IMG/VR virus record: IMGVR_UViG_2711768012_000020
DNA length: 36,971 nt
Direction: 5' to 3' (one strand)
DNA from: a virus
Lineage: Duplodnaviria > Heunggongvirae > Uroviricota > Caudoviricetes
Each line of letters begins with the position of its first letter. The stretch's first letter is position 1. The position numbers were made by a program, and so were the translations under genes. Shown in pieces: positions 1,250 through 6,871 of the stretch. The notes under the pieces are model-generated. The model was not told where the DNA came from. It saw only the letters and a program-made list of their open reading frames with translations, and did not search any database.

Positions 1250-1531
1250 TTAGTGATGTTCTTTGCCCTTCTGTTTGCCTGTTCTGACCTGTTCCCACTC
1301 GATACGTCCTTCTTCTCGTCTTTTGTCTATGTATTCCGCAAGATCCTGAATATTGATGCAACGTTTTGCTTTTTGTGATGTACCGATGCGATATGTAGGT
1401 ACAGGCAACTTACAAGCGTTTGCTTTTGCTTCTGCTGTGGCTGGACTCATACCAAAGTATTTTTGACTAACTGCTGAGAGTTCAATGTTTGGGGTATTGA
1501 ATTCAGCCATCAGTAAAAACAAGGTATTCAT
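1250..1531 (-). CDS. Excisionase-like / PrtN-family small DNA-binding protein
   Basis: 93-aa ORF; GGAG 7 nt upstream of the ATG at 1531; the motif IGTSQKAKRCINIQDLAEYIDKRR resembles winged-helix excisionase/pyocin-activator-type regulators; family call from memory. Confidence 0.5.
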   Translation of the reverse strand: MNTLFLLMAEFNTPNIELSAVSQKYFGMSPATAEAKANACKLPVPTYRIGTSQKAKRCINIQDLAEYIDKRREEGRIEWEQVRTGKQKGKEHH

Positions 1532-2362: not shown

Positions 2363-2538
2363 TATCGCTGTAATACAACACATGTGTGTATATATACGCA
2401 ATGCAATTATTTTGCAAGTGCTTCATTTACTATCAATAGCTACGTCACGTTATTGTTTAATGGTTCTTTATAGGGGCGGCAATAGTTAAAATTATCGCTT
2501 CCGTAAATGCCCCCGCAGGGGCATTTGCAGTAATGAAA

Positions 2539-3428: not shown

Positions 3429-3791
3429 TTAATGACCTGCTGCGCGGAGTTTTCCGTCAGGTTCACCGGCAAGAGTCAGTAATTGTCCCTGGTCTTCCTG
3501 CAGAATAGTCAGGCGACCACCGCGATTGACATACATCGGCGTTTCGGTGGTGTCTTCTTCGGAAATTTTCCCGCGGTTAGTCGGGCGAACATATGAGAGT
3601 TTGTGTTTGATTTTCACACGGTTCTCATCAAATGGTTCGATTTCCAGGTTGAGTGAGACCTTACCTTTGGTTTTCGTGTTCATCACACCGGAAGCGACTT
3701 CACTGAGAACTGCGCCGATTTTGGTTTCAAATACGCCGCCGTCCAGCTCCCCAATAAATGCCTGCACATCAGTACTGCGTTCGCTAGCCAT
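3429..3791 (-). CDS. Hypothetical early-left protein (120 aa)
   Basis: ATG at 3791 preceded by AGGAGC; the track ORF extends to 3977 but that N-terminal extension is Arg/Cys/His-rich junk with no RBS. Confidence 0.5.
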   Translation of the reverse strand: MASERSTDVQAFIGELDGGVFETKIGAVLSEVASGVMNTKTKGKVSLNLEIEPFDENRVKIKHKLSYVRPTNRGKISEEDTTETPMYVNRGGRLTILQEDQGQLLTLAGEPDGKLRAAGH

Positions 3792-4443
3792 TTTGCTGCT
3801 CCTAATCATATCGACCCTGCAAGGTCGGTTGGTTTCTCCACAAAACAGAGAAGAACACCTGCGGTGGCAGCCGCCCGGATGGATTTGGTTATGAGCCCGT
3901 CGTCCGGTGATGCTCTTCTCTGTTTTGTAAAAAGAGCGGTACCAGCCGGAAGCAAGTGTACAAACTGGTACCGCCAAAGCAGTGGCTGTTGTGGTGACCG
4001 GTGCTGATCTCCGGCTTGCGGTTATTTCAGACTCTCACGGGCGTTTAATTGCCCCGCCGAACAGCTCTTTTCCGCATTAGCTGCAATGTCTTTCGCGCAT
4101 CAGCCTGCGCATTCACCACAACGCTGAGAGCACTTAGCCAGTTACGGCACCACACTTTGTCGCGGTTCCATAAATGTCCTCATCGTTGCACCCTGGTCTC
4201 TTCCCAGGCGTCAAACCGAATCGCCACGCTGGTTAGGCGTCTTATCAGCATCATCATTGACTTGCACATTCCGGCTACCTGGTTTGTTTGCCCGAGCAAG
4301 GAGTGGATTGTCCCCTTTAACGTCCCCAGACCGCTAACGACGCATGTGCCATACGCCGTGTTACAACCAAATTTTGTTTAATCTTGCCTGTGCTGTGTTT
4401 CTTTTAGATACATTATGTATCCCAAAGGTACATTGTCAAGTAT

Positions 4444-4466
4444 AAAAAAACCTGCCGAAGCAGGTT
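4444..4466 (-). terminator. Intrinsic terminator downstream of the cI-like repressor gene
   Basis: On the minus strand: cctgcttcggcagg hairpin followed by TTTTTTT, directly after the repressor stop at 4478. Confidence 0.5.
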
Positions 4467-4477
4467 ATAAATATTGA

Positions 4478-5152
4478 TTAGGCCTTTATTATGTATCTTC
4501 TTGGTTTTCCTGAGAAAATCACTGTACCAATTATAGAGCAATTACCGTTAATCTTAATGTAAGGCTCAGGCCAGTTTGGGTTTAATGCTTTGAGATAACG
4601 CTGTGTTCCATCTTCTATCAACCGCTTGAAGGTGGTTTCGCCTGTATCGTGCATCAATGCAATAACGTCGTCACCGTGGCAGGCAGGGACTTCAGGATCA
4701 ACAAAAATCATGTCTCCCGGGCGGTACTCATCAATCATTGAATCACCAATCACCCGCAAGATATAAGTCATTTCGCCACAGGGTACAGGGCAGGGATAAG
4801 TTTCTGCTGTGCTCAAATCAACCTCAGAATAGCCAACTTCTTTCCATGCTCCGGCCTGTACCCATGATATGACAGGGACTAACGTTATTTGTTTGTTAGT
4901 GATTGAAACGTCAGGTTTTTTTGTGATGTTCGTTGTCTGGTGTTCTTGATCAAGCCATCCGACAGGCAGGTCGAAACATTTTTCGATGTGCCGTGCCATG
5001 CTGTCACCGATATTTTTAGTTGCACCATCTCCCATAAACCTGCTGGTCTGGGTTGGCTCGCGATCAATCATGGTGGCAAAGGAAGAATTCCCGCCAACAC
5101 CATCTCTCAGTTTTCTGGCGTTAGACCGCCGGATGTCATGGACTGTTTTCAT
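4478..5152 (-). CDS. cI: CI-type prophage repressor (HTH plus LexA-like S24 peptidase domain)
   Basis: 224 aa; N-terminal HTH region; C-terminal GDSM serine motif and downstream Lys as in LexA/CI autocleaving repressors; divergent from the cro-like gene across an operator region. Confidence 0.85.
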   Translation of the reverse strand: MKTVHDIRRSNARKLRDGVGGNSSFATMIDREPTQTSRFMGDGATKNIGDSMARHIEKCFDLPVGWLDQEHQTTNITKKPDVSITNKQITLVPVISWVQAGAWKEVGYSEVDLSTAETYPCPVPCGEMTYILRVIGDSMIDEYRPGDMIFVDPEVPACHGDDVIALMHDTGETTFKRLIEDGTQRYLKALNPNWPEPYIKINGNCSIIGTVIFSGKPRRYIIKA

Positions 5153-5486: not shown

Positions 5487-6038
5487 GTGGGTAAGCATCA
5501 CTGGAAAGTAGAAAAACAGCCTGAGTGGTACGTGAAAGCTGTCAGAAAAACTATCGCGGCGTTGCCGGGGGGTTACGCTGAAGCTGCTGAGTGGCTGGAT
5601 GTAACAGAGAACGCTTTATTCAACCGCCTTCGTGCAGATGGCGATCAGATTTTCCCGCTGGGATGGGCAATGATTTTACAGCGCGCGGCTGGCACTCACT
5701 ACATTGCGGATGCTGTCGCACAGTCTGCTGGTGGGGTGTTTGTATCGCTTCCTGAAATTGAGGAAGTAGAGAACGCCGATATAAACCAGCGCCTGCTGGA
5801 AGTCATCGAACAGATCGGGAGTTACTCAAAGCAGATTCGTTCGGCAATCGAAGATGGGGTAGTGGAGCCACACGAGCAGACAGCAATTAATGATGAGTTG
5901 TATCTGTCAATTTCGAAGCTCCAGGAGCATGCAGCACTGGTCTACAAAATCTTTTGCGCTCCAGAAAAGAGTGACGCCCGCGAGTGTGCAGCTCCGGGCG
6001 TCGTGGCGTTTTGTGTCTGTGGAGAAACTAACGCATGA
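5487..6038 (+). CDS. CII-like early regulatory protein (tentative)
   Basis: ORF directly downstream of cro; probable GTG start at 5487 with GAGG 6 nt upstream (track shows 5475); position is consistent with cII-type genes; family not confirmed. Confidence 0.4.
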   Translation: MGKHHWKVEKQPEWYVKAVRKTIAALPGGYAEAAEWLDVTENALFNRLRADGDQIFPLGWAMILQRAAGTHYIADAVAQSAGGVFVSLPEIEEVENADINQRLLEVIEQIGSYSKQIRSAIEDGVVEPHEQTAINDELYLSISKLQEHAALVYKIFCAPEKSDARECAAPGVVAFCVCGETNA

Positions 6039-6871
6039 ACAGTTTAACGGCAAATAACCGTTTGTCGCAACAGCTGGTGGTCAGCGTCGCTGAACACCTG
6101 TTGTTACGGCATGAATGCAGATTACCAAATCACCTGGCTGTAAGTAACCACAGAGAACTTTACCTGACTGTGGGGGGCGAGTTGTGCAGGAACTTAACCG
6201 CTGGTTTCGTGACGGAAGAGGACTTTATGTTCATGTTATTCGTTGGGAGCCAGAAACACAGCGCGTTATCTATCTTCGCAAAGACTACCCGCATGAGTGC
6301 TTTAGTCCTTTGTGGAAATTCAGGCGTGATTTTGTTGAGTGTGAAGGACCACCAGCACATTGATTCTGCCATTCCGGGACGTTACACTGTTCAGGCACCT
6401 TATAAAGCGGGTGCCGGGATTGGCGTCCTGGAATTGATCAAGGCGATATATGACGCGCCAGCGTCTTTTTTATCGTCCGCATTTGCTCACATCAAAGTTA
6501 TGGTGGGCTGGGCGGGGGCATCGAAAGATGCGCCGGTTTCCTTGATCACCGGTTACGCCAACCCCGTTCAGTTCACCACCAGCGAAATTGGCGTTTCCGG
6601 TGGTGGAAGTATTTCACCGATCAAGGAGGCTGCCATCATGGCTACTGTCCCAGCCCTCACTCGTCTGAATGATGAAGACTTACATAAACTCAGTTATGTA
6701 ACAACTGCACTACGTGCTCTGCGCAAGGTAACTCTTTCGGATCCGCAGGCACATCAGGTTCTGGTAGAAACCCTTCTTAACTTGCAAGCTGAACGTATTC
6801 GTCTGGCGGATAAGGCTAATTTTCATATTCACCGTCTCCTGAATATCAGCGGAGGGCATCGTCATGCTTAA
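6035..6871 (+). CDS. Hypothetical protein, first gene of the coupled replication-region operon
   Basis: 278-aa ORF, the only long open frame on either strand here; start overlaps the upstream stop (ATGA at 6035-6038); no domain recognised. Confidence 0.45.
   Translation: MNSLTANNRLSQQLVVSVAEHLLLRHECRLPNHLAVSNHRELYLTVGGELCRNLTAGFVTEEDFMFMLFVGSQKHSALSIFAKTTRMSALVLCGNSGVILLSVKDHQHIDSAIPGRYTVQAPYKAGAGIGVLELIKAIYDAPASFLSSAFAHIKVMVGWAGASKDAPVSLITGYANPVQFTTSEIGVSGGGSISPIKEAAIMATVPALTRLNDEDLHKLSYVTTALRALRKVTLSDPQAHQVLVETLLNLQAERIRLADKANFHIHRLLNISGGHRHA

Follow-up and report, generated by a model that had tools for sequence, protein, structure and literature searches.

Conserved RNA structures in fixed order, among them a tRNA-shaped module, make up the early-left leader of an N-less lambdoid prophage

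The 36,971-nucleotide (nt) viral stretch IMGVR_UViG_2711768012_000020, referred to here in its full length as the window, represents a lambdoid prophage of E. coli in which a gene-free interval (3792–4443) leads from the leftward promoter PL to the first early-left gene. We found that this leader consists of conserved RNA structures strung together in a fixed order: module A, helix H6, a tRNA-shaped RNA termed BC, an intrinsic terminator (T) and a three-way-junction RNA that contains a long inverted repeat. All of these elements lie on the minus strand, and compensatory base changes in related phages and prophages attest to all but T, which is kept as a hairpin of varying sequence. By analogy we infer that the leader could be the start of a mixed stable-RNA/mRNA operon built like metY-rimP-nusA-infB of E. 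coli, a view of its function that in our judgement is evenly poised between right and wrong.

Results

The inverted repeat and the terminator upstream of it

The first-pass annotation had singled out an extended inverted repeat as part of a possible structured RNA. Its arms (3840–3864 and 3904–3928; 25 nt, 84% complementary) indeed belong to the stem of a conserved three-way-junction RNA at 3832–3935, which we aligned in 26 diverse sequences from E. coli, Salmonella ST64B, Klebsiella and LLS. In this alignment 97% of the cells were paired, and 43 were double-change cells, against 13.9 in shuffled alignments (0 of 500 reached the observed count); when partners were slid, pairing dropped to 40–53%. 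The long stem P1 (arms ~3909–3935 and 3832–3859) comprises 22 pairs with three single-base interruptions (97.7% of cells paired) and shows compensatory changes at five of the pairs. It takes in the U-run of T and a conserved GGAGAAAC (3832–3839) that directly follows the inverted repeat, the two being paired with each other in the consensus fold. P3 is a CCGG...CCGG element around GGGCUCAUAACCA (3886–3898; consensus GGGCUCAUAACCC), and the variable hairpin P4 (3861–3874) has two covarying pairs.

A covariance model built from the 26 homologues scored the window copy at 108.9 bits on the minus strand and 40.8 bits on the plus strand. Together with the many U·G and G·U pairs, this difference identifies the minus strand as the functional one. 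Elsewhere in the 37 kb the model reached at most 12 bits, so the element is present in a single copy. Its apical GGGCUCAUAACCC (GGG-CUCAUAA-CCC) was invariant in 25 of the 26 sequences, and these 13 nt are identical to the anticodon stem-loop of the E. coli initiator tRNA (metY).

Scanning with the conserved apex recovered at least 120 viral contigs. The first genes downstream differ among them (yfdP-type MASER.., MSNDR.., MKLPKF.. and MHNPFF.. starts), which ties the inverted repeat to the operon start rather than to yfdP. In 110 of 124 contexts, an RNA occupying the tRNA slot described below was found upstream within 450 nt. The unit of slot RNA, T and inverted repeat is thus conserved while the downstream gene varies.

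T (3927–3975) consists of a 10-bp GC-rich stem (GCGGUACCAG/CUGGUACCGC; 3936–3945/3965–3974) with a 19-nt loop, followed by UCUUUUUAC. A U-run was found at this place, upstream of the inverted-repeat element, in 53 of 55 distinct contexts; 48 of the same 55 had a hairpin of −10 kcal/mol or lower, formed by 22 different stem arms. Because the stem sequence varies while the hairpin and CYUUUUUAC are kept, the terminator appears to be maintained for its function. T therefore combines the GC-rich hairpin and U-run of an intrinsic terminator with a structure that is conserved over its sequence, and the authors of the SfV study annotated the equivalent hairpin as a rho-independent terminator. A simple terminator scan missed T owing to its loop of 13–19 nt. 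The loops (3946–3964 in the window, 13–19 nt in homologues) are pyrimidine-rich and have a recurrent CCCUU/UUCC motif.

Another GC-rich hairpin, AAAUGCCCC-UGC-GGGGGCAUUU at 2499–2522 (minus strand), stands directly past the stop codon of yfdQ, and an equivalent terminator is annotated in phage Ayreon. It would be a second barrier within the early-left operon. The open reading frame (ORF) that follows it (1568–2401) has its own promoter-like site and a moron-like look.

The tRNA-shaped RNA

Two short blocks of the leader, 4134–4095 and 4020–3987, proved to be the halves of one element, BC (3987–4122). It is closed by an acceptor-like helix of GUUGUGGUGA (4113–4122) with UCACCACAAC (3988–3997), which contains a D-like hairpin (4095–4110; GCGCA-GGCUGA-UGCGC), a variable insert of 79 nt (4016–4094) and a T-like hairpin (3997–4015; GCCGG-AGAUCAGCA-CCGGU, consensus end CCGGY). 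Besides the inverted repeat, this closing helix and the stem of T thus belong to conserved elements as well. With the insert removed, 93.9% of the cells were paired across 61 distinct scaffolds; in nine pairs both partners had changed, where shuffles gave 3.5 (0 of 500 reached this number), and slid partners paired in 26–51% of cells. Exchanges in the D-like stem run from GC to AU, from CG to UA or AU and from AU to GC. The T-like stem has 5 bp (pair 30/48 is GC in 51, AU in 3 and GU in 2 scaffolds) and abuts the 7-bp acceptor-like helix (pairs 4–10/49–55 adjoin 30–34/44–48), as in the cloverleaf, where the acceptor stem of 7 bp is stacked on a T stem of 5 bp. GCUGA in one loop is complementary to UCAGC in the other (99% paired), but as both hardly vary, a contact between them is unproven.

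The genomic setting of BC is that of a tRNA. In the epsilon15-like phage TL-2011b, an identical upstream leader (...CUAAGUGCUCUCAGCGUU) continues into a real tRNA-Arg whose G1 coincides with the first base of BC, and the two trailers on the 3′ side are similar. All 21 tRNAs located within 600 nt of BC copies have the same orientation as BC. Other occupants of the slot in related leaders share a GUUGUGG/CCACAAC helix, some of them with canonical D and T arms. A second slot subfamily, BC2 (GUUGUGGUAAUGCGGCUNUGCGCA...GGUGGAGGCACCACCGCCACAAC), stands upstream of T in ST64B, LLS, SfV and Klebsiella phage Kp4866-6. Further variants of the slot include the Ayreon type (GUUGUGGUAAUCCGCGAAAUGGCGCGG...) and near-canonical tRNA-like RNAs with GUAGCUCAAUUGGUUAGAGC and GGGUUCGAGUCCCGG arms (loci L266 and L284). 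The slot, the co-orientation and the occupants with a shared helix suggest that BC is derived from a tRNA.

BC is widespread. Exact-pattern scans returned at least 120 viral contigs for either half, and both blocks occur in Ackermannviridae (Magnus), Swiduovirus swi2, Salmonella phage STGO-35-1 and others, upstream of tRNA-Met. The invariant 25-nt 5′ motif was found exactly in genomes of 51 species, among them Enterobacterales, Aeromonas, Janthinobacterium, Massilia, Undibacterium, Marinobacterium, Lysobacterales, Martelella and a metagenome-assembled genome (MAG) of Geobacteraceae. The copy of phage P1 (AF234172; 3351–3470, minus strand) has compensatory GCACA/UGUGC and UCGG/CCGA stems; it lies ~300 nt downstream of tRNA-Asn/tRNA-Thr and overlaps, on the opposite strand, the annotated "plp" (putative lipoprotein) ORF.

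BC copies come in several transcriptional settings. Some are preceded by a −10 box, 6–7 nt ahead of the helix, and followed within 20–100 nt by an intrinsic terminator, which makes them discrete small-RNA genes. Others lie downstream of cI and PL (~38 loci) or in front of holin-endolysin-spanin genes (29 loci), and in N-encoding phages the order is PL, boxA, boxB, BC, N. In three N-encoding viral contigs (L027, L041 and L068), where BC sits between a textbook nutL (UGCUCUUUAACAA, or boxB GCGCUGAAGAAGCGC) and the arginine-rich N start (MNAQERRRESRSAKQAEWKAAN...), its closing stem is extended to ~17 bp and BC takes the place that the RNase III hairpin has in lambda. The small RNA that the first-pass annotation had listed among its options fits the tRNA-shaped module.

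The insert is the hypervariable part of BC. Its length ranges from 12 to ~190 nt, it has no common anticodon arm, and the 157 copies gave 94 versions in 63 clusters. Complementarity of the inserts to the 1.5 kb of downstream sequence was at chance level (5% at p ≤ 0.05), and the longest complementarity of the window insert to the whole window genome was likewise at chance. One insert type (1 of 63 clusters) carries GGACUUUUAAUCC, the anticodon loop of E. coli tRNA-Lys(UUU) with its closing pairs.

Could the leader, and BC in particular, be a DNA-level or selfish element, such as a MITE- or PATE-like insertion or a recombination site, or else decayed coding sequence, with no function as RNA? 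BC has terminal inverted repeats (TGTGGTG/CACCACA), an inverted GCTGA/TCAGC pair in subterminal position and a variable centre, its distribution is patchy as well as wide, and annotators have called short ORFs in the leader. Against this, both BC hairpins show strand-specific G·U pairs and compensatory changes, BC is always co-directional with neighbouring tRNAs and operons and exactly replaces a tRNA, and we saw no transposase or target duplication. The coding variant is contradicted by frameshifts between close relatives and by the lack of codon-position bias in those ORFs. We find an explanation of this kind hardly credible.

The architecture of BC also bears on a different proposal, in which the leader RNAs, produced at once upon infection or induction, would act in trans as tRNA mimics. 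The BC scaffold would stabilise its cargo, and the fMet hairpin would be a decoy or inhibitor of tRNA-targeting factors of the host or of competitors (anticodon nucleases, VapC-type initiator-tRNA nucleases), or translation would be manipulated, in the service of counter-defence. Its strengths are the tRNA-like build and slot; the hypervariable insert, typical of arms-race determinants; the exact initiator-tRNA arm in the inverted repeat beside the tRNA-Lys(UUU) loop of one insert type; the BC copies that have their own promoter and terminator; and immediate-early expression from PL. In addition, retention of the 25-nt motif from Enterobacterales to the Geobacteraceae MAG suggests a universally conserved partner. 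On the other hand, that single cluster is the only one of the 63 with an obvious anticodon-arm mimic and the window insert has none, chance-level complementarity leaves the inserts without a known antisense target, and the loci showed no linked defence system. We regard this as possible, if on balance doubtful. It is the most interesting of the alternatives and is compatible with the operon-start reading rather than exclusive of it.

Helix H6 and module A

Upstream of BC, helix H6 (4126–4181) pairs GAGGACAUU (4173–4181) with AGUGCUCUC (4126–4134) and encloses a variable loop. All nine pairs form in 124 of 136 distinct contexts, compared with 1 of 136 when the upstream sequence was shuffled, and among the variants seen, AAGAGCAUU/AGUGCUCUU and GAGAACAYU/AGUGUUCUC are compensatory. 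In the window copy there is a single A·C mismatch. The 3′ strand, with the conserved sequence AGUGCUCUY, resembles a boxA and ends 4 nt short of the tRNA slot.

This resemblance raises the question of Nus-factor antitermination, in which AGUGCUCUY would recruit NusB/NusE as a boxA and shield the untranslated leader from Rho. An untranslated RNA of 600 nt is a natural Rho target, and GUGCUCUUU shares 8 nt with the core of the rrn boxA, UGCUCUUUAACAA. However, boxA must be single-stranded, whereas the motif is the strand of H6 that pairs with RAGAGCAYU in those 124 of 136 contexts; moreover, the AACAA part is missing, and genuine nut sites with a perfect UGCUCUUUAACAA occur elsewhere in N-encoding relatives. 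Once the pairing in H6 had been quantified we dropped this idea, which we consider very improbable. Identity with a nut or rrn boxA (GCUCUUUAACAA) was rejected as well, given that the boxA-like AGUGCUCUC is paired in H6 and no boxB hairpin is present.

Module A (4188–4362) is the promoter-proximal structured RNA. In an alignment of 16 diverse homologues, its 26 pairs in six helices were formed in 99.3% of cells, and 42 cells showed double changes, where shuffles gave 15.2 (0 of 500 reached the observed value). The module contains hairpin H1 (4338–4358), an invariant single-stranded motif AAUGUGCAAG (4261–4270) with long-range helices around it, H4 (4214–4234) and hairpin H5 (4192–4208), whose GAAGAGA loop is invariant and single-stranded. 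A counterpart of 4372–4195 lies in phage P1 between trnI and ban, co-oriented with both. The segment 4359–4116 recurs in the gap between terminase and portal genes of epsilon15-like TL-2011b, O157 typing phage 9 and Tyrion, where it is next to a tRNA-Arg and upstream of it. In the window, the motifs of modules A and BC each occur once.

Conservation and non-coding status of the leader

Taken as a whole, the leader folded better than shuffled sequences on both strands (z = −2.7 and −3.0). Such folding z-scores alone say little, and it is the comparative evidence that counts. The first-pass proposal of a structured RNA, for which hairpins kept in related prophages were the deciding point, is supported by compensatory changes in four leader elements. 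Two features of the alignments affect how these numbers should be read: seeding with exact motifs lowers the visible variation in those motifs, and the relatedness of the sequences lets shuffle controls overstate significance. The stronger evidence lies in the slid-partner controls and in multiple independent types of compensatory change.

Matches to the leader were present in 178 phage records, 28 of which covered at least 80% of it. Among complete E. coli genomes, 2663 of 5426 carried part of the leader and 759 at least 80%; the leader of E. coli strain 6409 is 100% identical to that of the window. E. coli places covering at least ~70% of the leader were all unannotated among the matches listed, and partial matches over 3792–3977 lay under "hypothetical protein" calls. 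In mEp460, which has a different repressor, and in other immunity types the homology ends at 4378, the edge of the promoter, so conservation of the leader is independent of immunity type as judged from these sequences. The leader is a mosaic, and pieces of it turn up in unrelated genomes. Annotations routinely mistake these regions for small hypothetical proteins, as with mEp460_036/037, Ayreon 0036/0037 and perhaps P1 plp.

A search of 3792–4400 against Rfam 15 (4227 models; gathering score or E ≤ 10) returned only a chance-level match to CC0196 (E = 4.1). Sub-threshold matches to STnc370/STnc50 (4403–4476) cover the promoter-operator region and the cI terminator. A literature search by sequence strings and keywords found no description of the leader RNAs; the Pas small-RNA preprint deals with small RNAs of the late region and not with this locus.

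Two further observations concern related leaders. The cryptic prophage CPS-53 of E. coli K-12 has lost cI, PL and all RNA modules; of the leader it retains just the final 31 nt (ribosome-binding site and yfdP start), and repeats of GAYGSRTCAGATTTTGA-like units take the place of the leader in the K-12 yfdO-yfdP spacer. A promoter-proximal motif that is not present in the window, CCACCGNGCCUGAWGUGGURAAAAG(A)CAGGC, is conserved in LLS (leader positions ~105–140), SfV and Kp4866-6, with 41 matches in the loci examined. It could form an H-type pseudoknot (CCAC/GUGG, GCCUG/CAGGC) and is a candidate regulatory RNA of N-less leaders.

As the first-pass annotation had stated, the interval is gene-free: no conserved ORF was found on either strand of 3792–4443, and the longest minus-strand ORF between the cI stop (4478) and the ATG at 3791 has 49 aa. 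In the Ayreon copy, which is 98% identical, the plus-strand ORF 4049–4381 has a frameshift. Substitutions in this ORF fall evenly on the three codon positions (15/8/14, 12/14/8 and 22/23/15), its indel lengths are not divisible by three, and it had no Pfam match. This substitution pattern and these indels, along with the compensatory base pairs, are those of an RNA and exclude the decayed coding sequence that had been entertained for the region.

The assignment of the region to a leftward transcript held as well. Directly after the cI terminator (4442–4466) lies a PL-like promoter at 4412–4439 (minus strand; −35 TTGACA at 4434–4439, −10 CATAAT at 4412–4417), with a 16-nt spacer and 11 of 12 consensus matches, whose position puts the leftward transcription start near 4405. 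Positions 3792 to ~4405 are thus the untranslated 5′ leader of the PL transcript on the minus strand. At its far end, a small hairpin (3810–3829, minus strand) and the Shine-Dalgarno sequence AGGAG (3799–3803, minus strand) precede the ATG at 3791.

Comparison with HK022 put RNA

The put RNA of phage HK022 binds the β′ zinc-binding domain of RNA polymerase and suppresses terminators in cis. The first-pass annotation had suggested an RNA of this type, noting Q but no arginine-rich N-like protein to the left of cI. A Pfam domain search of the window proteins agreed with this: Q (Antiterm) lies at 11566–12360 and no N-like protein was found in the phage. Membership in the put family, by contrast, received no support. 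Local alignment of the leader and the PR side with putL and putR, taken from HK022, gave scores inside the shuffled range, the put core motif (...AGGAUGA...CAAUG..UGC) is absent from both strands of the window, and no leader segment recurs in the PR operon as a putR-like second copy. Module A homologues scored z = −0.4 to 2.0 against put. The highest value belongs to the base of H1 (ACGGCG...AUGCGUCG) compared with putL stem I, where 31 of 1000 shuffles reached the same score, so that it is not significant. The PL-proximal segments of SfV and ST64B showed no similarity to put.

A cis-acting, processive put-like mechanism could nevertheless exist without homology: module A or BC would bind the RNA polymerase that transcribes it, carry it past T and subsequent terminators and so replace N. 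As in HK022, a non-coding structured RNA occupies the early leader of an N-less lambdoid phage, module A is promoter-proximal like putL, its H1 base has some likeness to putL stem I, and a terminator lies downstream to be passed. The phage has Q but no N, and the literature reports a lack of N for the SfII/SfV/SfIV group (PMC3851460) and for LLS too, whose authors guess at a put-like mechanism for this type of phage (PMC12315714). A conserved terminator stands before all early-left genes and a terminator-like hairpin after yfdQ, so the operon needs some read-through device. BC, for its part, is found in the leaders of both antiterminated lambdoid operons, the PL leader and the region upstream of the lysis genes.

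Several points speak against it. HK022 put is an RNA of ~70 nt with two stems directly at +1, whereas the leader has modules of 105–235 nt and a three-way junction. The other module A homologues and putR stay within the shuffle range, the core motif is lacking, and the PR operon has no second copy. Module A also occurs in short morons and in the P1 trnI-ban gap. Stand-alone BC genes end in a terminator, which would be self-defeating for an antiterminator, and in N-encoding phages BC lies downstream of a normal boxA-boxB nut site. The inverted repeat is itself downstream of T and cannot act on it. In sum, we consider a put-like antiterminator improbable.

Neighbouring genes

The prophage is of the N-less lambdoid kind represented by mEp460, cdtI, SfV and LLS. 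The cI gene (Peptidase_S24) occupies 4478–5152 on the minus strand and is followed by a Cro-like helix-turn-helix protein and CII (CP76); a lysozyme gene comes after Q. The first early-left gene, starting at ATG 3791 (minus strand), is yfdP-like (PHROG 204, homology to K-12 YfdP), and yfdQ (DUF2303) comes after it.

Two Rfam matches above the gathering score lie in the PR operon on the plus strand, isrK (6395–6471, 64 bits) and the C4 antisense RNA (6496–6583, 82 bits). Both fall inside a 278-aa ORF (6035–6871), called "immunity region" in the Ayreon annotation, that is probably spurious, wholly or partly. The early-right operon, too, carries processed regulatory RNAs, of the P1 immI or Gifsy isrK-anrP type. 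Other features include two overlapping plus-strand ORFs of unknown type (190 and 139 aa) within 1–989 at the left end, a small PrtN/pyocin-activator-like protein at 1250–1531 (minus strand; PF11112), probably an excisionase-type regulator, and, in the right operon, a protein with a LexA DNA-binding domain (9056–9382) and a KilA-N protein (9740–10597). Compared with PHROG and Pfam, the neighbouring small proteins matched families of unknown function only.

Discussion

The closest parallel to the order of elements in the leader is the metY-rimP-nusA-infB operon, which Regnier and Grunberg-Manago reportedly described in 1989 as the metY tRNA, leaky terminators, an RNase III hairpin through which the tRNA is freed from the mRNA, and the first ORF. 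We saw terminators and hairpins in the K-12 metY-rimP spacer. In both cases a tRNA or tRNA-like RNA, an intrinsic terminator, a long hairpin and the first cistron follow each other in this order, and both contain the sequence of the initiator-tRNA anticodon arm. The phage slot RNA, unlike metY, is not a decoding tRNA, and the phage fMet arm sits in a hairpin rather than in a tRNA; sequence homology is confined to the 13-mer.

Modelled on this operon, PL would first make the structured RNAs after derepression. The tRNA-processing enzymes would cut out BC, with RNase P acting at the 5′ end of the acceptor-like helix and T defining the 3′ end. A leaky T would set how much short RNA is made relative to full-length early-left mRNA and thereby attenuate early-left expression. 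In transcripts that read through, the ~22-bp stem of the inverted repeat would divide the mRNA from the stable RNAs, probably by serving as a target for RNase III and stabilising the 5′ end. The fMet-arm mimic may bind a host factor that recognises the initiator tRNA, such as the 30S P site with initiation factor 3 (IF3), methionyl-tRNA synthetase or a nuclease directed at tRNA-fMet.

Several observations weigh against this operon-start reading. The shape of the RNA is what suggests RNase P and, in the phage as opposed to metY, RNase III cleavage. ARAGORN called no tRNA in the window and Rfam gave no tRNA match, the D-like and T-like loops of BC (GGCUGA and AGAUCAGCA) are not canonical tRNA loops, and N-CCA follows the acceptor in only 16 of 152 BC copies, not including that of the window; we therefore rejected an encoded CCA as a general feature of BC. 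The large 19-nt loop of T leaves its efficiency in doubt. In the fMet mimic of the window, CCA replaces CCC, so that the 3-bp stem is weakened. A mere RNase III site does not explain why the apical motif and GGAGAAAC are invariant, and the constancy of the fMet-arm mimic points to a further, specific partner. Finally, the model accounts neither for module A nor for passage through T and the post-yfdQ hairpin without N.

Other known RNAs share parts of this organisation. P1/P7 C4 and P4 CI (RF01695; processed by RNase P) are likewise small RNAs of early leaders with a long closing helix and a conserved scaffold with variable parts, and a genuine C4 is present in the same window (6496–6583). BC differs from them in its invariant flanking hairpins, which can kiss, and in a middle that varies. 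We rejected assignment of BC to this antisense class (RF01695, clan CL00128), as it matched no model at E ≤ 10 and insert complementarity was at chance. With the lambda N leader (nutL and an RNase III hairpin upstream of N) the region shares its genomic position, and in N-encoding relatives BC lies between boxA-boxB and N; the window, however, lacks N, boxB and a single-stranded boxA and has T and the inverted repeat instead. Like mascRNA, the tRNA-like domain of the bacterial Y RNA YrlA and engineered tRNA scaffolds, BC combines an acceptor/T stack with a replaced anticodon domain, for which tRNA-processing enzymes are expected. In contrast to these, it is phage-borne, its D and T loops are non-canonical and mutually complementary, it usually lacks CCA, and it had no match to a Yrl model in Rfam.

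The acceptor helix, D-like hairpin and T-like hairpin of BC hardly change between Enterobacterales and Beta- and Alphaproteobacteria. A bolder idea, which we hold to be rather doubtful, is that the leader exemplifies a new class of phage tRNA-mimic RNAs, comprising the BC scaffold with its hypervariable cargo and the separate fMet-arm hairpin. Made as the first transcripts, they would engage a universally conserved host machine (RNase P, the ribosome/IF3, an aminoacyl-tRNA synthetase or RNA polymerase) and thereby neutralise tRNA-directed defences or replace N-type antitermination.

On the question of how early-left genes are expressed in N-less lambdoid phages (SfV, SfII/SfIV, ST64B, LLS, cdtI, Stx2c phages and mEp460), the literature has offered only the guess of "perhaps put RNA"; homology to put is now removed. 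The question now has testable parts, namely a conserved terminator before all early-left genes that is flanked by conserved RNAs. Compensatory changes back at least three structured-RNA families in the leader for which Rfam 15 has no model. They are extremely common, as part of the leader is present in about half of the complete E. coli genomes, and the tRNA-shaped family extends to phages and prophages across Proteobacteria, including P1, Ackermannviridae, Swiduovirus and epsilon15-like phages.

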